From Cyanobacteria bacterium J06621_15 (GTDB taxonomy: Bacteria > Cyanobacteriota > Cyanobacteriia > Cyanobacteriales > Nostocaceae): DNA of 32,000 nucleotides. A program made the translations under genes and the position numbers. This document shows, one piece after another, positions 2,161-24,245 of this stretch; position 1 is the stretch's first letter; every line of letters begins with the position of its first letter. Under the pieces are notes generated by a model. The model was given only the letters and a program-made list of their open reading frames with translations, ran no database searches and had not been told where the DNA came from. Location of the stretch: assembly GCA_038525335.1 (NCBI GenBank), contig JBCBHT010000024.1, positions 4,257 through 36,256 of the forward strand. The letters run 5' to 3'.

Positions 2161-2172
2161 GTTAACTAACAA

Positions 2173-2484
2173 CTAGCTAACAATCGCTAAAATATCTTTC
2201 TCAGAAAGCAGTACATACTCGTCAGTACCCAACTTGATATCGGTACCAGCGTACTTGGAGTAAAGAACTTTATCGCCAACCTTTACATCCACTGTCTGAC
2301 GATTGCCATCGTCCTTCATCTTACCGTCGCCTACTGCTACTACTTCGCCTACTTGGGGCTTTTCCTTAGCAGTATCAGGTAGATATAAACCACCAGCAGT
2401 CTTTTCTTCCGATGGGTTAACCTTTACAAAAACGCGGTCACCTAAAGGTTTTACTGTTGAAACGCTTAAAGATACAGCTGCCAT
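2173..2484 (-). CDS. groES: Co-chaperonin GroES (Cpn10)
   Basis: 103-aa [14 protein letters not shown] and the mobile-loop-like [27 protein letters not shown] are typical Cpn10 features. It lies upstream of groEL. Confidence 0.97.
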
Positions 2485-2499
2485 AACTTATTTGCCTTC

Positions 2500-2526
2500 T
2501 TAGCACTCTCGACTCCTGAGTGCTAA
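2500..2526 (-). promoter_or_regulatory. CIRCE operator (HrcA binding site) upstream of groES
   Basis: Perfect match to the CIRCE consensus TTAGCACTC-N9-GAGTGCTAA (TTAGCACTC TCGACTCCT GAGTGCTAA). It lies 15 nt upstream of the groES ATG. Confidence 0.9.
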
Positions 2527-2554
2527 TTTAGCGAAGCTACACCTATGATGGCAA
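2525..2554 (-). promoter_or_regulatory. Putative sigma70-type groESL promoter overlapping CIRCE
   Basis: On the minus strand: TTGCCA (2554-2549), an 18-nt spacer, then TAAATT (2530-2525). The -10 element abuts or overlaps the CIRCE left arm. This is motif reading only. Confidence 0.35.
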
Positions 2555-3548
2555 TATTTTCTAAAGTACGGGTTCCCGAACTAAGACGAAAGCAGGTTAA
2601 CCTAAGTATAAATGCTCAATTTTCAATGGTGTTTCGGGTTTTATGCAACTTCGGAAGAAGAGCTTGATATGGTTAGCTATTATTTGCAAAGCCAAGAAAT
2701 TGTAATAGAACTGTAAAATGTAGCCTTTTTATGCGTGATGATGCAGTGTTTCATTCGAGCGTTCAAGTACAAAAAACAACTAGCCTTCTACCCTATAAAA
2801 TCCTTAATAAATTATATAGAAACTTTAGGGTTGTCAAAAAATCGACAACGTGTATTTCTATGGAATTTAGGTTTAATTTCTATTCGATTAGACCATAGAA
2901 GCTAGTTTTAGTTTTTGAAATACTTGAAAAAGTGACTATTTAAGCTCAAAATGGACTCTGTACAACTGGAAAAACCGGCAACGGTATCCGAGCAAAAAAC
3001 CAACTACTTGCGGGAGCGGTTGTTCTAGAACAATAATAGTAGCTTACCCCGTGTTTATTTGTGGTAGCTACTCCTTTATCTCCCGAGTTATTTATCGCGT
3101 TTTAACCGAACGCATAAAAAGCTTATTTTGAGGCTAGCTATTCAATACGAAAACAAGTTTGTTCCCTACTTCCTTAGACTTCCTTAAATAAGAAATAAAA
3201 TCTTAGAGTTAAAGGAAAGCATTGAGTTAGATACGTAAAAGCAATTTAAAGATGAAAGCGCGGGTAACTTTTACAAGAAGTATGTTCGCCCAATACTTCT
3301 CTTGTGAACCCTGGCATATTATTATCTGATGGAATGTTTTTAGCCCGCACTTTTCAAAGCGATGTATAATAGCGCATTATAATACTATTGCTCTACGTAT
3401 CCTTACTGTAGCTCTTAGAGTTGATGGTGAAATTTCAATGGAGGCGGTAATCTCCTTTGAGACTTCCTCGAATAGAAGAGCAAGGTAAGCGGGAAAAAGG
3501 GACAACATCTCAATCATCCACCAATTAGGATAACTATTCAAGACCTTG

Positions 3549-4226
3549 ATGGATCTAAGCGCGACAAGTGCCACTGCTATGAAAGAACCCAGCATGAAAG
3601 ATCACAAACGATTACTGCTTATAGATGATGACCCTAATCTCATCTTGCTGGTAAAAGACTACCTCGAATTCCGAGGATATGAAGTCGTCACAGCCGAAAA
3701 TGGTCGAGAAGCTCTGGAAATACTGGAGCTAGACATCCCAGACATGATTATTTGCGACGTAATGATGCCGGAAATGGACGGTTACACCTTTGTAGAACAA
3801 GTCCGACAAACAGAACGTACTAGTTGGATACCTGTTCTCTTCCTTTCTGCAAAGGGACAAAGCGCAGACAGAGTGAAAGGTTTGAATAAAGGGGCTGATG
3901 TGTATATGGTCAAGCCCTTTGAACCAGAAGAACTCGTAGCCCAAGTTGAATCCTCGCTCAAACAAACAATTCGTTGGAAAGAACATCAAGCTAAAGGAGG
4001 CGAAAACGGCTCCCGTATCCAAGTACCTTTTGATGTCCAACTAACCCCAACAGAACTCAAAGTAGTGCAATTTGTTGCTAGAGGTATGGCTAACAGAGAA
4101 ATCGCTGAAGAACTCAACGTTTCTCAGCGTACTGTTGAAAGCCACGTCTCCAATATGTTGGGTAAAACCAACCTCCACAATCGCACCGAACTAGCACGTT
4201 GGGCTATTGAAAATCAAATGGCATAA
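3549..4226 (+). CDS. NarL/FixJ-family two-component response regulator (Ycf29/Rre1-like)
   Basis: Receiver domain motifs (LLLIDDDPN, DMIICDVMMPEMDGY, LSAKG, KPF) plus a C-terminal LuxR-type HTH (LTPTELKVVQFVARGMANREIAEELNVSQRTVESHVSNMLGK). The start is ambiguous: ATG at 3549, 3579 or 3594, or TTG at 3546. Confidence 0.9.
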   Translation: MDLSATSATAMKEPSMKDHKRLLLIDDDPNLILLVKDYLEFRGYEVVTAENGREALEILELDIPDMIICDVMMPEMDGYTFVEQVRQTERTSWIPVLFLSAKGQSADRVKGLNKGADVYMVKPFEPEELVAQVESSLKQTIRWKEHQAKGGENGSRIQVPFDVQLTPTELKVVQFVARGMANREIAEELNVSQRTVESHVSNMLGKTNLHNRTELARWAIENQMA

Positions 4227-4295: not shown

Positions 4296-4447
4296 GTTGG
4301 GGTGTAGATTCTCTTCCCCAAAACTTTCCAAGACGGATTTTACATTTAAATTACTAATCTAAAATCCGAAATTGCTTAATTAAACTAACTGATTACTCCT
4401 TGCACAATCTATCAGTTAGTAGCTATTAGTTATTAGATATAATCTTT

Positions 4448-7741: not shown

Positions 7742-8161
7742 ATGGAACCTTTAACAGCTGGTGCGATCGCCACTCTTGCTTTTACCAAAGCTTTTGAAAA
7801 GACGATTGAAAAATTTACTGAAACAACCTGGAATAAAATTGACGCGCTACGCAAGAAGATTTGGCATAAATTAGCTGGAAATGAAGAAGCGGAAAAAGCC
7901 TTAGTTGCTATTGATTCAGGTTCTAAGCAAGATTTTGAATTAATTGCTCGATACTTAGAGCAAGAGATGGAATGGGATAAAAATTTTGCTCAAGAAGTGC
8001 AAACTTTAGCGCGTGAAATTGAGCAAGAAATTAATATCGGCAAAATACAAGGAAAGAATGTGCAAAATGTTTATGGTGGAGAAGCGCAGCAAAATAATGC
8101 AAATAACACTAATGCACCAGTAATCCAAGGTGGTAGCGGACACAATATTACATTTAATTGA
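7742..8161 (+). CDS. 139-aa all-helical protein with a hydrophobic N-terminal helix and a Q/N/G-rich tail. It is probably the detached N-terminal module of the downstream NB-ARC/TPR protein.
   Basis: ATG start. MEPLTAGAIATLAFTKAFEKTIEKF is followed by charged, helix-like segments, and the tail is GKIQGKNVQNVYGGEAQQNNANNTNAPVIQGGSGHNITFN. It ends at TGA 8159-8161, in the same frame as the NB-ARC ORF. Confidence 0.6.
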   Translation: MEPLTAGAIATLAFTKAFEKTIEKFTETTWNKIDALRKKIWHKLAGNEEAEKALVAIDSGSKQDFELIARYLEQEMEWDKNFAQEVQTLAREIEQEINIGKIQGKNVQNVYGGEAQQNNANNTNAPVIQGGSGHNITFN

Positions 8162-8275
8162 CTACAGTCGTCGGGAAGGGAACCGACAAAGTATCGTCCC
8201 ATCAAATATATACCTAACCGTGGTGCAACTAACTTTGTAGGAAGACGAGATGAACTTATCATAATTCATCGAAAG

Positions 8276-10978
8276 TTGCATAAAACCAATGCTCTAGCAA
8301 TTTTAGCTGTTGCCGGAATGGGTGGTGTGGGTAAAACCGAATTAGCGACACAGTACGCACGAAGACACGAAAATGATTATCCAGGTGGTATTTACTGGAT
8401 AAATGCCAGAAGTGGGAATATTACAGCACAGATAATTGGATTTGCTTTAAATTTAGGTTTGCAAGTTCCTCAAAAAGACTTTCAAGATAAAGCTTTGGGT
8501 ATTGTTAAGCAGGTACAGTGGTGCTGGCAAAATTGGCAGCCACCCAAAGGATTAGTATTATTTGTTTTAGATGATGTCACTGATTTAGAAGGTTTTTCTG
8601 AACTCTTACCCACAGATAGCCGCTTTCGGGTTTTAATAACAGCTAGATTGCGAAATCTCGACACCAACATTGAGGAAATATCTCTCGATGTATTGTCAGC
8701 AGAAGAAGCTTTAGAATTATTAAAAAAAATAGCTGGTGAAAAGAAAGTAAATAAAGAATTAGTAATAGCAAAAAAACTATGTACATGGTTGGGATATTTG
8801 CCTTTAGGAATAGAATTAATCGGAAGGTATATAAAGAGAAAACCTCCTCATTTTACTTTAAAGAAGATGTTAGAACTGTTGAAACAGCAACGACTGCATC
8901 AAGAAGCCATAATAAATACCCAACAAAAAACCTTGAGTACCTCACAACTGGGAGTTTTAGCAGCATTTGAATTAAGTTGGGTGGAATTGAGTGAATCAAC
9001 ACAGCAACTTGCGACGTTGTTAAGTTTATTTGCAGCAGATATTTTTGTTTGGGAATGGGTAGAATCTATGGCTCAATCCCTCAATTGGAATGATTCTGAT
9101 GTTGAGATAGCAATTGAGCAACTTTATCAACGTCATTTGGTACAGTCTTTGGAAGAGGGAGAAGAATATTACTATAAAATTCATCCTTTAATTCGAGAGT
9201 TTTTGCAAATTAAATTACAAGCATCTGCACAAATCAACGAATTAAAACGAGTGTTTACCAGTACTTTTATTGAAATTGCTCAAACAATTCCTCAATTAGC
9301 AACCTTAGAATTTATCAATTCAGTAAAAAACGCTATTCCTCATTTAGCAGAAGTTGCAGAAAATTTAACTGATGCAGTTAACGATGAAAATTTGTTTGGG
9401 GCTTTTACTGGTTTAGCTAGCTTTTACGACGCACAGGGTTTATATACATTGGCAGAACTTTGGTATGAGCAATGTGTGTCAATAGTCAAATTCCGTTTAG
9501 GAGAAAACCATCCCGATTTTGCATCCAGCTCGAACAATTTAGCTTTACTATATAAATCACAAGGAAGATATGATGAAGCCGAATTGCTTTTTATTCCAGC
9601 ATTAGAGTTAACAAAACGCCTTTTTGGCGAAAATAATCCCTACACTGCTACAAGCTTGAACAATTTAGCTGGACTCTACCACTCCCAAGGAAGACACGAT
9701 GAAGCTGAAACGCTTTTTATTCAAGCTTTAGAATTATATAAACAGCTATTGAGAGAGAAAGGAGAAAATCATCCCCAAGTTGCAACCAGCTTAAACAATT
9801 TAGCTGAACTCTACAAATCTCAAGGAAGGTACGGTGAAGCTGAAACGCTTTTTATTCAAGCTTTGAACTTAACACAGCGCTTCTTTGGTGAAAATCATCC
9901 TTACACTAGTACCACCTTGAACAATTTAGCTGGACTCTACTCTAATCAAGGAAAGTACGATAAAGCTGAACCCCTTTATATCCAAGTTTTAGATTTAAGA
10001 AAACAGCTACTTGGAGAAAACCATCCTGATACTGCTACGAGCCTCAATGATTTAGCTTTACTATATAAATATCAAGGAAGATACGATGAAGCTGAGCCTC
10101 TTTTTATCAAAACATTGAAATTAAGAATACGTATTTTAGGAGAAGATCATCTTGACACTGCTAATAGCTTGAATAATTTAGCTTTTCTTTACGATTGGCA
10201 AGGAAGATACGATGAAGCTAAACCCCTTTATATCCAAGCATTAGAGTTAAGAAAACGGTTACTTGGATTAAATCATCCTGACACTGCATCTAGCTTGAAT
10301 AATTTAGCTGGACTTTACTATCACAAAGGAAGTTATAAAGAAGCTGAACCGCTTCTAATCGAAGCATTAGAGTTAAGAAAGCGGTTACTTGGATTAAATC
10401 ATCCTGACACTGCATCTAGCCTAAACAATTTAGCTGAATTCTACCGTTCTCAAGAAAGATATGATGAAGCCAAACCGCTTTTTATCCAAGCTTTGGAGTT
10501 ACAAAAACGTCTACTTGGATTAGATCATCCCGATGTTGCACAAAGTTTGAGTAACTTAGCTGTTCTATGCTACTCCCAGCAAAGATACCATGAAGCCGAA
10601 CTGATTTTTATCAAAGCTTTGGAGTTAAGGAAACAGTTATTCGGAGAAAATCATCCCGACGTTGCACAAAGCTTGAACAATTTAGCTTCTCTCTACCACT
10701 CCCAGGGAAAGTACTCAGCAGCAAAACCTCTTTTAAAACAAGCACTAGAGTTGTATAAACAGCTATACGGAGATAATCATTCCGATGTTGCACAAAGCTT
10801 GAACAATTTAGCTTCTCTCTACGATTCGCAAGGAAAGTACTCAGTCGCAGAATCGCTTTATATCCAAGCTTTAGAGATTGCGGAGCGGGTTTTGGGCACA
10901 AATCATCCGAATACGGCGACAATTCATAATAATCTAGAATATTTACGAGTAAAGCACAGAGAAAATAAGAATCAGTAA
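8276..10978 (+). CDS. NB-ARC (STAND) NTPase fused to about 12 TPR repeats (NLR-like)
   Basis: Walker A GMGGVGKTELA (8315-8338), Walker B LVLFVLDDV, RVLITAR, GLPLA-like GYLPLGIELIG and MHD-like KIHPLIREF. These are followed by 42-aa kinesin-light-chain-type TPR units (..NHPDTASSLNNLAGLY..G.Y.EAEPL..). The TTG at 8276 is only the first possible start; homology extends upstream to 8162. Confidence 0.9.
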   Translation: MHKTNALAILAVAGMGGVGKTELATQYARRHENDYPGGIYWINARSGNITAQIIGFALNLGLQVPQKDFQDKALGIVKQVQWCWQNWQPPKGLVLFVLDDVTDLEGFSELLPTDSRFRVLITARLRNLDTNIEEISLDVLSAEEALELLKKIAGEKKVNKELVIAKKLCTWLGYLPLGIELIGRYIKRKPPHFTLKKMLELLKQQRLHQEAIINTQQKTLSTSQLGVLAAFELSWVELSESTQQLATLLSLFAADIFVWEWVESMAQSLNWNDSDVEIAIEQLYQRHLVQSLEEGEEYYYKIHPLIREFLQIKLQASAQINELKRVFTSTFIEIAQTIPQLATLEFINSVKNAIPHLAEVAENLTDAVNDENLFGAFTGLASFYDAQGLYTLAELWYEQCVSIVKFRLGENHPDFASSSNNLALLYKSQGRYDEAELLFIPALELTKRLFGENNPYTATSLNNLAGLYHSQGRHDEAETLFIQALELYKQLLREKGENHPQVATSLNNLAELYKSQGRYGEAETLFIQALNLTQRFFGENHPYTSTTLNNLAGLYSNQGKYDKAEPLYIQVLDLRKQLLGENHPDTATSLNDLALLYKYQGRYDEAEPLFIKTLKLRIRILGEDHLDTANSLNNLAFLYDWQGRYDEAKPLYIQALELRKRLLGLNHPDTASSLNNLAGLYYHKGSYKEAEPLLIEALELRKRLLGLNHPDTASSLNNLAEFYRSQERYDEAKPLFIQALELQKRLLGLDHPDVAQSLSNLAVLCYSQQRYHEAELIFIKALELRKQLFGENHPDVAQSLNNLASLYHSQGKYSAAKPLLKQALELYKQLYGDNHSDVAQSLNNLASLYDSQGKYSVAESLYIQALEIAERVLGTNHPNTATIHNNLEYLRVKHRENKNQ
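9386..10950 (+). repeat. 126-bp periodic intragenic repeats encoding the TPR array
   Basis: Units are exactly 126 bp apart. For example, 10238-10294 and 10364-10420 are 56/57 identical, and 10661-10696 and 10787-10822 are identical. Confidence 0.8.
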
Positions 10979-10983
10979 AAAGT

Positions 10984-11364
10984 CTATAAAATCGCAGACG
11001 ATATTTTTTCCAAGGAAACCAAACCATTGTCTTCAAAATTTATTTCTAGATGATATCCTTCCATCAAAGCAACTCCCAATAAAGGTTTATTACCAGAAGC
11101 TAAAACAAGGACTACTTTTTCTACATTGTCCCAAATAATTGTTGCTGAATGTATGGCTGATAGAGCTTGACTACCGTCAGCTAAGCTTATAAGCGTACTA
11201 GAATATACAGGAAGATTCATCGCATTGACAGCTTGTGGTGGTAAGGTAAGATAACCGTTGAATCCAGTATCGATAACAAAATCCACAGAAAAATCTGGCT
11301 GTGAAGGTAAACGGAAAATGACTGGAACTATTGCTTTACCCTCACTAATTCTTCCATTAATCAT
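10984..11364 (-). CDS. Retropepsin-like (clan AA) single-domain aspartic protease
   Basis: 126 aa. The catalytic D-T-G sits in a hydrophobic context (DFVIDTGFNGYLTL). The size fits a homodimeric retropepsin fold. Its start overlaps the upstream stop (ATGA). Confidence 0.75.
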   Translation of the reverse strand: MINGRISEGKAIVPVIFRLPSQPDFSVDFVIDTGFNGYLTLPPQAVNAMNLPVYSSTLISLADGSQALSAIHSATIIWDNVEKVVLVLASGNKPLLGVALMEGYHLEINFEDNGLVSLEKISSAIL

Positions 11365-11636
11365 TTAACTGTACGGTTCATCGGAGCATGACCAAAGCTG
11401 AATGCAACATCATAACCGATTCGCATGGTAAATAATCTAGCCATTGGCTTCTTCTCTTTTAACTTGATTGCTGTTTCTATACCAGTTTTATCAATTCCGT
11501 ATTCGCCAGTTTCAGCATCAATCGTAATCATCTTACCAATATTATCGTCATGCTCAACTTGTTGACGAATACCATTTTCATAAAATTCTTTAGCTCTGCG
11601 AGCAACTTCTTCGACAGTCCAGAAAAGTGATTGCAT
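11361..11636 (-). CDS. 91-aa hypothetical protein translationally coupled to the retropepsin-like protease
   Basis: ATG start and a 4-bp ATGA overlap with the protease gene. No motif recognised. Confidence 0.6.
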   Translation of the reverse strand: MQSLFWTVEEVARRAKEFYENGIRQQVEHDDNIGKMITIDAETGEYGIDKTGIETAIKLKEKKPMARLFTMRIGYDVAFSFGHAPMNRTVK

Positions 11637-11694: not shown

Positions 11695-11856
11695 TCAATA
11701 TTCCATAAACAAACTCGCATCAAAATGAAATAAATTACCCAACTTTTGAGCCTGTTGTGCAGTTATTTCTAAATCACCATTAATTACTTTATCAACATTT
11801 TCAATAGAACCGAAAATTGAAATTAGACTTTCCTTATTTTTATCTTGTGCTTCCAT
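11695..11856 (-). CDS. Small XRE/HigA-like HTH fragment (53 aa from the internal ATG; the ORF track extends to a TTG at 11901)
   Basis: SIFGSIENVDKVINGDLEITAQQAQKLGNLFHFDASLF resembles the recognition-helix half of antidote-type HTH proteins. It is short and has no partner toxin gene. Confidence 0.35.
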   Translation of the reverse strand: MEAQDKNKESLISIFGSIENVDKVINGDLEITAQQAQKLGNLFHFDASLFMEY

Positions 11857-11936
11857 TAAGTGTAAAATCGCAGAAATATTCTGGGATGAAAAAATTATCA
11901 ACCCAGAATATCACAAATTCAATTCCATCTTAAAAA

Positions 11937-22898: not shown

Positions 22899-24245
22899 AT
22901 GACATACGATTACGATTTATTTATAATGGGTGCTGGTTCCGCTGGTGCGGCTGCTGCTTCAAAAGCTGCTTCTTTGGGGTTGCGTGTAGCTGTAGCAGAA
23001 CAAGAAGCCATAGGTGGAACTTGTTTGAATCGCGGTTGCATTCCTAAAAAGTTGATTGTATACGCCGCTGACTTTGCGCTACATAATAAAATTGCACCTG
23101 ATTATGGTTGGAGTAAAAGCTCATCACATTTCGATTGGACGCAATTTATCCGCTCCGTACATAAACAAATAGACCGCATTAATAGTTCGTATCAAGAAAA
23201 ATTTAAGAAGAGTGGCATTGAGTTGATTCGTGGTCATGCTGGTTTTGTTGACGCTCACACAATTAAAGTTGATGAACGTAAAATTACTGCTGACAAGATT
23301 TTAATTGCTGTAGGTGCAAGTCCTTTTATCCCGGATATTCCGGGTATCGAATACGCTATTACTTCCCGTGAAATGTTTCATTTACCCTACTTACCCAAAC
23401 GTTTAGCAATCATAGGTGGGGGTTATATTGGTGTAGAATTTGCTAGCATGATGAACGCTTTGGGTTGTCGCGTTACTGTTGTTGATACTGATGAAACGAT
23501 TCTAGAAGGATTTGATAACGATATTCGTAAAACCCTGCAAGAAAGTTTATCTAGAAGAGGAGTTAAGTTTGTCAACAACAGCACCGCAACCGAAATTAAG
23601 CATTATGAGGAAGGGTTGCTATTAACTGTAAGTGGTAAATACAAGAAAACCATAGCTGCTGATAGTATTTTAGTTGCCACAGGACGCGCTCCCAACACCG
23701 AAAAGCTTGATTTAGATAATGCTCAAGTTGAAATGGGCGAAAAAAATGCAATCAAAGTAGACGAATATAGTCGCACCAATCAAGAAAATATTTTTGCCGT
23801 TGGAGATTGTACCAACCGCTTGCAGTTAACCCCTGCTGCGAAATCAGAAGCTGAAGCTTTTATCAATACTGTATTTGCTAATCAACCAGAAACAGTTAAT
23901 TACGATGATATACCTTCTGCTGTTTTTGCTCGTCCGGAAATGGCTAGTATGGGGATGACTGAAGACCAAGCTCGTTCGGAATTTGGTGACTCAGTGAAAT
24001 GTTACGACCATAAATTCCAACCTTTAATGCATCAGTTGGCTTCAAGTGAGGAGCAAACAATAATTAAGGTAGTAGTTGAAGGTGAATCAGAACGTGTTAT
24101 CGGAGTTCATATGTTGGGTGAGCATGCTGCTGACATTATTCAATGTCTTGGTGTAGCCATTCGTAAAGGTATAACCAAACAAGATTTAGATAAAGCTATT
24201 GCGATTCATCCAACTACCGCAGAAGAATTTTTAACATTAGATTAA
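22899..24245 (+). CDS. Class I pyridine-nucleotide-disulfide oxidoreductase: a diverged glutathione-reductase paralog
   Basis: 448 aa. FAD-binding GAGSAG, redox-active CLNRGC (23022-23039), second dinucleotide fold GGGYIG, and C-terminal HPTTAEEF. It is roughly 45% identical by eye to the downstream gor. Confidence 0.9.
   Translation: MTYDYDLFIMGAGSAGAAAASKAASLGLRVAVAEQEAIGGTCLNRGCIPKKLIVYAADFALHNKIAPDYGWSKSSSHFDWTQFIRSVHKQIDRINSSYQEKFKKSGIELIRGHAGFVDAHTIKVDERKITADKILIAVGASPFIPDIPGIEYAITSREMFHLPYLPKRLAIIGGGYIGVEFASMMNALGCRVTVVDTDETILEGFDNDIRKTLQESLSRRGVKFVNNSTATEIKHYEEGLLLTVSGKYKKTIAADSILVATGRAPNTEKLDLDNAQVEMGEKNAIKVDEYSRTNQENIFAVGDCTNRLQLTPAAKSEAEAFINTVFANQPETVNYDDIPSAVFARPEMASMGMTEDQARSEFGDSVKCYDHKFQPLMHQLASSEEQTIIKVVVEGESERVIGVHMLGEHAADIIQCLGVAIRKGITKQDLDKAIAIHPTTAEEFLTLD

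Follow-up and report, generated by a model that had tools for sequence, protein, structure and literature searches.

The 32,000-nucleotide stretch analysed here (hereafter the window) comes from Cyanobacteria bacterium J06621_15 (GCA_038525335.1, contig JBCBHT010000024.1, positions 4,257 to 36,256 of the forward strand). Between positions 7742 and 10978 it carries two consecutive open reading frames (ORFs): ORF1, which encodes a small protein with a helical domain and a Gly/Asn/Gln-rich tail, and a long ORF for an NLR-like STAND NTPase. A first-pass annotation, made from the letters alone, had claimed that the two share one reading frame and are parted by nothing but the TGA at 8159-8161, and the re-derived coordinates agree. 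Here we describe evidence that this stop is probably a site of programmed readthrough, at which a minority of ribosomes would continue from ORF1 into the NLR. The locus comprises the following features.

7742-8158, forward strand: ORF1, ATG at 7742, 139 codons, stop TGA at 8159-8161
7742-8032, forward strand: N-terminal helical domain of ORF1, residues 1-97, Bell-like, with N-terminus MEPLTAGAIATLAF (AlphaFold2 model, homologues)
8033-8158, forward strand: C-terminal Gly/Asn/Gln-rich tail of ORF1, residues 98-139, NIGKIQGKNVQNVYGGEAQQNNANNTNAPVIQGGSGHNITFN, putative amyloid signalling motif
8159-8162, forward strand: candidate recoded stop tetranucleotide TGA-C, the post-stop codons being CTA CAG
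8162-8169, forward strand: 8-nt spacer, CTACAGTC, consensus CUNNAGYC
8162-8275, forward strand: start-less linker of 38 in-frame codons with the FVGRRDEL segment (FVGR at 8234-8245)
8170-8187, forward strand: hairpin, stem 1 GTCGG (8170-8174) with CCGAC (8183-8187), loop GAAGGGAA (8175-8182), supported by covariation
8178-8200, forward strand: predicted pseudoknot stem 2, loop GGGA (8178-8181) with TCCC (8197-8200), supported by covariation
8276-8278, forward strand: TTG, the NLR start chosen by gene callers (the equivalent position is called in GCA_039817465.1)
8264-8929, forward strand: NB-ARC NTPase domain (Pfam, E = 2.4e-17), P-loop GMGGVGKT at 8315-8338
9323-10906, forward strand: TPR sensor array (Pfam TPR_12, E = 1e-174; TPR_10, E = 8e-164); stop of the ORF at 10976-10978

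After the TGA at 8159-8161 the zero frame stays open for 938 codons, up to the stop at 10976-10978, and this downstream ORF has the make-up of an NLR-like STAND NTPase: a P-loop-bearing NB-ARC domain and, after it, a TPR repeat sensor. As the first-pass annotation had stated, ATG, GTG and TTG are all absent from the 38 codons of 8162-8275, and the earliest start codon is TTG 8276. Its further claim that a conserved FVGR..EL segment lies upstream of this TTG is borne out by Pfam, which places the start of an AAA_16 match at post-stop residue 24 (FVGRRDEL) and that of the NB-ARC match at residue 35. Because the conserved FVGRxxEL would be lost from a protein starting there, TTG 8276 is probably not the true NLR N-terminus. 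Inspection of the window sequence found no evident Shine-Dalgarno sequence for TTG 8276, and the window analysis found no promoter-like site in the span between ORF1 and the NLR.

A leaky stop followed by C is conserved at the junction

For homologues of ORF1, 74 genomic loci spanning filamentous cyanobacteria were fetched and 76 junctions inspected; the counts that follow come from phylogenetically related sequences. The junction stop is TGA in 72 of the 76, TAG in two and TAA in two, and the TAA cases are confined to two loci that are both ordinary two-gene pairs. Carriers occur in Nostocales, Coleofasciculaceae, Leptolyngbyaceae and Microcoleaceae. Position +4, directly after the stop, is C in all 74 TGA/TAG junctions, with CTACAG (36 junctions) and CTGCAG (13 junctions) as the commonest post-stop hexamers. 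In 68 loci the post-stop codon is CTA, CTG or CTC; the other loci have CCN or CAG. None of these 68 Leu codons is TTR, compared with 50% of the Leu codons further downstream, which argues that the +4 C is selected as a nucleotide. Among 187 other long ORFs of the same loci, by comparison, stops are TAA in 51%, TAG in 27% and TGA in 21%, and TGA-C occurs only twice (~1%). The junction pattern also fits the divergent members L079, L080 and L082, the last of which has UAG as its stop.

A C at +4, above all after UGA, terminates poorly in bacteria, and readthrough follows the order UGA > UAG > UAA (PMC5289835); the first-pass annotation had named UGA-C as the weakest stop tetranucleotide in E. coli. 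The strong preference for UGA over UAG, the complete avoidance of UAA and the obligatory +4 C therefore match the bacterial order of termination leakiness.

In a single sequence, one in-frame stop with the frame intact on both sides has the look of fresh nonsense. One of the two readings that the first-pass annotation had offered took the TGA for a fresh nonsense mutation that makes a pseudogene of an ordinary fused gene, or for an error in the sequence. The comparison refutes this reading and leaves it scarcely credible: across several orders of cyanobacteria, orthologues retain a leaky stop followed by C at 74 of 76 junctions, and the flanks on both sides of the stop are under constraint. 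The suspicion of an assembly error at 8159-8161 fails as well, as the TGA and its flanks are identical in three independent assemblies, the NCBI metagenome-assembled genome (MAG) and two from separate sequencing runs. Moreover, a junction-spanning query against 5.8 billion proteins returned none that covers both sides with a sense codon, so that the databases hold no fused version of the gene. An apparent natural TGG variant, the protein P0132 (L075:488-1648) with Trp at the stop, was rejected as evidence because its DNA reads TGA and the gene caller had applied a code in which TGA is Trp. Another protein, P0162, has a W at the same place and is probably the same artefact. 'Fused' entries of this type in public collections could mislead homology-based annotation.

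Several loci depart from the general layout. In Cyanobacteria bacterium FACHB-63 (L069:4454-4520) a second in-frame TGA lies 19 codons past the junction stop, just 5' of FVGR, and marks either a pseudogene or a further leaky stop. L063 has a frameshift or early TAG in ORF1, L065 a frameshift in NB-ARC and L034 a stop right after the P-loop; such damage fits the turnover of an immune gene family, and assembly errors are also possible. In a Chroococcales-labelled MAG (L046) and a Nostoc MAG (L049), an insertion beginning MSTTGYAYA lies 5' of the P-loop, at codons ~50-62, and moves the P-loop from codon 55 to codon 62, with the in-frame ORF still exceeding 400 codons.

The reading frame is kept open across the junction

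In all but a few of the TGA/TAG junctions the zero frame runs on for hundreds of codons, into a STAND NTPase. Over the 150 codons past the junction frame 0 has a mean of 0.32 stops, whereas the two alternative frames average 8.3 and 9.6, and 64 of the 71 loci with enough sequence have no frame-0 stop in this interval. The frame is kept despite indels: FVGR lies 23-28 codons past the stop in most junctions and 40 codons in one locus, and the P-loop follows the stop by 50-55 codons in most. About half of the loci, the window included, have no in-frame ATG, GTG or TTG before FVGR.

These observations bear on whether the locus is simply two separate genes, in which ORF1 would always terminate and the NLR would be made by reinitiation at a non-canonical codon immediately past the stop or from an internal start (TTG 8276 in the window, a GTG or TTG ahead of FVGR in Nostoc). 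The hairpin would then couple translation of the two ORFs or stabilise the mRNA. This is how gene callers annotate the locus, about half of the loci do offer an in-frame GTG or TTG before FVGR, and termination-reinitiation coupling is reportedly widespread in prokaryotes. A shared frame is not needed for independent initiation, yet it is kept at nearly every junction. The window and about half of the loci have no canonical start before FVGR, the first codon after the stop (CTA, CTG, CTC, CCN or CAG) is not a start either, and TTG 8276, with its lack of an evident Shine-Dalgarno sequence, would drop FVGRxxEL. Two separate genes would also leave the exclusive use of a leaky stop followed by C unexplained, no promoter-like site separates the ORFs, and the NLR would have no motif tying it to its effector (see below). 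We consider the two-gene explanation unlikely, though it is the most serious of the alternatives to readthrough.

A covarying RNA structure follows the stop

The first-pass annotation had noted a hairpin, GTCGG-N8-CCGAC, at 8170-8187. It is present after the 8-nt spacer, shows compensatory changes and appears to be part of a larger structure: the loop GGGA can pair with the downstream TCCC, and stem 1 together with this pairing would form an H-type pseudoknot. Stem 1 begins 8 nt past the stop in most junctions and 9 nt past it in about ten. In an alignment of 74 junction sequences, A17 and G18 of the spacer are at least 90% conserved and C20 is invariant (alignment numbering). Taking both stems together, 94% of the cells are paired, compared with 21-56% when the partners are slid, compensatory changes occur at seven of the nine pairs, and none of 500 shuffles attains the observed score. 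Stem 1 is paired in 97.7% of cells, with compensatory changes at three of five pairs (CG 38/UA 25; CG 38/GC 9/UA 7), and stem 2 in 89.6%, with compensatory changes at all four. The changes in stem 2 are concerted, as in AGGC/GCCT (L062), CGGC/GCCG (L066), CAGA/TCTG (L067), GAGG/CCTC (L079) and CGGAT/ATCCG (L080). An alignment-free test gave a similar picture, in that a helix of at least 4 bp between loop and downstream sequence can form in 92% of 78 junctions and in 17% with a control window placed another 50 nt downstream. The junction region has no match among Rfam families. The support for the hairpin comes from covariation and not from folding energy.

Synonymous variation is suppressed as well. 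Third-position entropy is ~0.3 bit over codons +1 to +9, as against ~1.6 bit in the NB-ARC core, and at codons +5 and +8 positions 1 and 2 are more variable than position 3. The synonymous third position of codon +4 covaries with the second position of codon +8, whose changes exchange Pro, Arg and Gln, which argues that selection acts on the RNA and not on the encoded peptide. The loop sequence GGGAA was also considered as a Shine-Dalgarno sequence and rejected: it covaries with the downstream strand (AGGC, CGGC, CAGA, GAGG), and no start codon follows it.

A bacterial selenocysteine insertion sequence (SECIS) element has a general layout of a UGA with a small hairpin shortly downstream, and the conserved UGA close to a small hairpin at this locus recalls it; the UGA would then be decoded as selenocysteine by SelB. 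We regard this as very improbable. The junctions of L066, L067 and L082 have UAG with the same hairpin and frame, not one homologue has Cys or any other sense codon at the site, and the surrounding sequence is a disordered linker of variable length, not a redox motif. The loop, moreover, covaries with a downstream strand, unlike a conserved protein-binding loop. The cyanobacteria surveyed for the trait (picocyanobacteria only) were classed as non-Sec-decoding (PMC1273633), and no tRNA gene was found in the window.

ORF1 resembles Bell domains and carries a putative motif that the NLR lacks

An ORF1-identical protein (P0001) is encoded by Cyanobacteria bacterium J06636_27, and relatives occur in Rivularia/Calothrix. 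We found 215 close homologues, and all 120 among the matches listed are standalone proteins of 129-149 amino acids from filamentous cyanobacteria; a profile search of 1.84 billion representative sequences gave 470 homologues, mostly of 130-155 amino acids. The AlphaFold2 model of ORF1 has five helices, the first of which (6-18) is hydrophobic, at a mean predicted local distance difference test (pLDDT) score of 68. At the N-terminus, MEPLTAGAIATLAF, M1, T5, A6 and A10 are invariant and E2 and P3 are at least 90% conserved. Bell, Hell and Bab domains, along with several antiphage NLRs, are reported to share an 'MEPIS' motif, and Bell domains consist of four helices that cup a hydrophobic helix 1 (bioRxiv 10.1101/2024.11.07.622273). 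With its similar MEPLT start and a model of moderate confidence, ORF1 resembles a Bell domain. No Pfam family matches ORF1 except DUF4378, which was dismissed as sub-threshold, and a PF20701 label precomputed on two homologues was not reproduced by hmmscan. A second match to TGACTNNAGNC, at 23956 of the window, does not lie in the frame of its ORF and was discarded as fortuitous. Within ORF1, positions 7763-7770 read GCGATCGC, which we take to be the HIP1 palindrome typical of cyanobacterial genomes, in keeping with the sources of P0001 and of the Rivularia/Calothrix relatives.

The tail of ORF1, ~40 residues rich in G, N, Q, V and I, is strongly conserved and predicted to be disordered (pLDDT <50). 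By composition it is a putative amyloid signalling motif, and relatives in Leptothoe indicate how such a motif may be used. In the two Leptothoe loci L068 and L070, the ORF1 homologue ends with TAA and the adjacent NLR starts from a separate ATG in a different frame; in L068 the N-terminus of this NLR matches the effector tail, with 65% identity over 37 amino acids (E = 1e-16). To judge from these sequences, this is the paired-motif layout described for Bell/BASS-NLR pairs. The NLR of the window, in contrast, does not resemble the ORF1 tail anywhere in its sequence, nor does it begin with a start codon; in the absence of a second copy, the motif could reach this NLR only through readthrough.

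The closest separately initiated relatives of the window NLR (P0270, P0271 and P0272) share with it the linker KPIKYIPKxGSxNFVGR. They have their own ATG and an N-terminal Asn/Tyr/Gly/Glu-rich motif, NYNERIEGNYIEGDYY, unlike the ORF1 tail, and this difference suggests that motifs are swapped on an otherwise conserved NLR. Distant relatives of the ORF1 domain run on, without an intervening stop, into NB-ARC-TPR (P0261, P0267), TIR, CHAT-TIR or GUN4; the two direct NB-ARC-TPR fusions indicate that an effector-NLR fusion is a viable architecture.

The cassette is portable

The ORF1-stop-hairpin junction opens in frame to NB-ARC-TPR, NB-ARC-APAF1_C, NACHT-HEAT and AAA_16/TANC1-like NTPases and to a few non-NTPase ORFs. 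A DNA-pattern scan of metagenomes gave 53 stretches, mostly chance matches in non-cyanobacterial contigs, and the only real cassettes among them were L090, L099, L119 and L127. In L090, L099 and L127 the cassette follows an alpha/beta-hydrolase of ~300 amino acids and is itself followed by an in-frame NB-ARC-TPR. This lipase-like hydrolase has a DUF676/PGAP1-like match just at threshold and an Asn/Gln-rich C-terminal motif. The cassette is therefore portable: Bell-like or lipase-like effectors precede it, and sensors of the NB-ARC, NACHT or AAA_16 type follow. Helical pore-type or lipase-type effectors that combine an amyloid motif with an NLR have a parallel in fungal systems.

That one junction joins such varied upstream (Bell-like, hydrolase) and downstream (NB-ARC, NACHT, AAA_16, non-NTPase) modules suggests modular exchange at or near it. 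The junction might accordingly be a DNA or RNA element unrelated to decoding, either a recombination site that shuffles N-terminal modules or an RNase processing site, with the in-frame layout as a by-product. The compensatory changes, however, point to a folded single strand and not to a fixed recombination core, neither the start-less open linker nor the leaky stop followed by C would be required, and modular exchange is equally expected of a portable recoding cassette. We judge an element of this kind distinctly improbable.

Some neighbourhoods deserve mention. The divergent ORF1 homologue of L080 (L080:1-4784) may sit in a defence island, as its neighbours are AbiEi/AbiEii and an Eco57I-like gene; this locus keeps the hairpin GCCGG/CCGGT and the CGGAT/ATCCG pairing, and its in-frame continuation is a non-NTPase ORF. 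In L081 a peptide-chain release factor gene (2172-3167; Pfam PCRF and RF-1; 331 amino acids as called) lies directly 5' of an ORF1 homologue (3501-3941) of the non-readthrough type, which ends in TGA TTT and is followed in another frame by an ORF that looks by sequence like a protein kinase. The adjacency may be coincidence and is notable in that other members of the family appear to depend on termination efficiency. In the window, two small minus-strand ORFs, 10984-11364 (126 amino acids) and 11361-11636 (91 amino acids), overlap by 4 nt, converge on the 3' end of the NLR and resemble a toxin-antitoxin pair in layout; beyond them lies a further small minus-strand ORF, 11695-11901.

Programmed readthrough is the favoured reading

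A conserved in-frame stop, an open frame beyond it, a leaky stop codon with C at +4 and a spaced, covarying 3' structure, which together characterise recoding sites, are all found at this junction. From this comparative evidence we conclude that the junction stop is probably a programmed recoding site. Of the two readings that the first-pass annotation had set out, we favour programmed readthrough, with TGA/TAG-C kept at 74 of 76 junctions, the frame open, the hairpin covarying and sense-codon variants absent. One recoded gene would then give two products, an abundant free effector and a rare effector-NLR fusion, and we put the probability of this reading at roughly 75%.

In the model that we derive from the amyloid-signalling literature and the Leptothoe comparison, most ribosomes would end at UGA 8159-8161 and release the 139-amino-acid Bell-like domain with its Gly/Asn/Gln-rich, amyloid-type tail. 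This free effector would presumably target membranes and kill the cell. A minority of ribosomes would decode the UGA as sense, most likely as Trp via near-cognate tRNA-Trp, for which E. coli and phage Q-beta provide precedents, favoured by the UGA-C context, the 8-nt spacer and a compact pseudoknot positioned at the ribosomal mRNA entry. The ribosomes that read through would make an effector-tail-linker-NB-ARC-TPR protein. A trigger sensed by the TPR array would lead to NB-ARC oligomerisation, the clustered tails of the fusion would nucleate an amyloid fold, and this fold would convert the abundant free effector, amplifying a death or defence signal. Readthrough would therefore substitute for the second, NLR-borne motif copy of classical Bell/BASS-NLR pairs, keeping the motifs of sensor and effector identical and setting the effector in excess. 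The first-pass annotation had proposed an abundant free module and a rare fusion, and this putative stoichiometry gains a rationale from the free module carrying the amyloid-type tail that the NLR lacks.

Several points weigh against this reading. The conserved stop and its context, the open frame, the RNA structure, the missing start codon, the NLR devoid of a motif and the portable cassette are read directly from the sequences, and the support accordingly consists of conservation and covariation; from these we infer readthrough, its level, the inserted residue, amyloid formation, toxicity and the trigger. We know of no demonstration of structure-stimulated readthrough on bacterial ribosomes. 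Because the sequences are related, the locus counts overstate the number of independent events, and the covariation of stem 2 is confined to a few divergent lineages. The hairpin alone is thermodynamically ordinary (z = -0.29). Three Coleofasciculus loci (L039, L052 and L064; junctions at 4418, 4415 and 4346) retain TGA-CTG-CAG with no hairpin or a degenerate one and lead in frame into a 137-codon ORF that matches no Pfam family; the cassette may have decayed there or may work differently. The junction of L080, TGA-A, is the sole exception at +4, and a Nostoc subgroup has an in-frame GTG or TTG just 5' of FVGR that could serve as an independent start. The Bell assignment, finally, stands on the N-terminal motif and a moderate-confidence model: a Foldseek search of the ORF1 model against the PDB gave nothing with E <1, the deposited Bab structure included, and an ORF1 sequence profile had no significant match among PDB sequences, so that membership at the level of the fold is unproven.

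If the reading is true, a single copy of an amyloid motif serves both sensor and effector, and sensor dosage is tied to termination efficiency, that is, to the activity of release factor 2 (RF2). A stop-spacer-pseudoknot cassette in hundreds of cyanobacterial loci would place on 70S ribosomes a strategy, programmed readthrough with a 3' RNA stimulator, that is textbook knowledge for eukaryotic viruses; for bacteria, we know only of documented context-dependent leakiness, as in phage Q-beta. Bacterial amyloid-signalling immunity would gain a third architecture, one gene with two products, besides the two-gene and all-in-one forms, and annotation pipelines would be systematically mis-starting one class of NLR genes. 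As a small RNA element with a defined stop and defined partners, the junction offers a directly testable system for effector:sensor stoichiometry and motif identity in NLR signalosomes, and could also address the coupling of immune output to the state of the termination machinery.

Comparison with known systems

The first-pass annotation had called readthrough control undescribed for bacterial NLRs, and we likewise found, in open-access papers and preprints, no earlier account of bacterial NLR or amyloid-signalling genes that use readthrough, and none of a cyanobacterial readthrough site stimulated by RNA structure. The preprint of Dyrka et al. (bioRxiv 10.1101/2020.01.06.895854) makes no mention of stop codons or readthrough, and the literature searched contains no description of a fungal-type signalosome split by a stop codon. 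We lean, by a modest margin of belief, towards the broader claim that this is a bacterial immune family with structured programmed readthrough (UGA-C, 8-nt spacer, mini-pseudoknot), the first such signal to be described on bacterial ribosomes, pairing a prion-motif effector with a rare nucleating fusion.

The closest parallels in signal design are viral. Viral readthrough signals combine UGA-CUA, an 8-nt spacer and a 3' structure (PMC3159437). Like gag-pol of murine leukaemia virus (UAG, 8-nt spacer, pseudoknot), the junction has a leaky stop, a spacer of ~8 nt and a downstream structure, and like the type II signals of alphaviruses and tobraviruses (UGA-CUA or UGA-CGG with a 3' stem) it has a stop followed by C, often as UGA-CUA (PMC3159437). 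Compensatory changes, suppressed synonymous variation and a design that would give an abundant short and a rare long product are further likenesses. Unlike the viral signals, it lies in a bacterial chromosomal gene, would be read by 70S ribosomes with release by RF2 or RF1, and has a smaller structure (5 bp + 4 bp).

Among bacterial cases, the coat/A1 readthrough of phage Q-beta takes place at a UGA by means of tRNA-Trp, and UGA-C is generally leaky in E. coli; to our knowledge no downstream structural stimulator is involved in Q-beta. Low-level sense decoding of UGA that would yield a C-terminally extended minor product is common to both, but the gene belongs to a cellular immune family here and to a phage there. 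In dnaX, tau and gamma arise from a -1 frameshift with a hairpin, and prfB uses a +1 frameshift at UGA-C. As in these genes, one gene would yield two polypeptides in a set ratio with the help of a nearby RNA element, and prfB shares the UGA-C, whereas the downstream ORF here lies in the zero frame and no frameshift is involved. Bacterial SECIS genes likewise have an in-frame UGA closely before a conserved hairpin, but differ from this family in its UAG variants, lack of Cys homologues, linker site and loop engaged in a predicted pseudoknot.

In biological setting, the fungal HET-S/NWD2 and SesB-lipase/NLR signalosomes are similar in placing a pore-forming or lipase-like effector with a prion motif under an NLR, and both effector types occur with the cassette. 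The fungal systems, in contrast, consist of separate genes that each carry a copy of the motif, or of all-in-one fusions. Nearest of all are the Bell/BASS-NLR pairs of multicellular bacteria (Dyrka et al., bioRxiv 10.1101/2020.01.06.895854) and the Bab/Agp abortive-infection pair of E. coli (bioRxiv 10.1101/2024.11.07.622273), in which a small helical effector lies directly 5' of an NB-ARC or NACHT receptor and has a hydrophobic N-terminus beginning MEP and a C-terminal G/N/Q-rich motif, as ORF1 does. The ORF1 tail is set beside the BASS motifs by composition and layout, not by a match to any of BASS1-11. Unlike in the Bell/BASS pairs, the receptor here has neither a copy of the motif nor a start of its own and is joined in frame to its putative effector through a leaky stop and an RNA structure.

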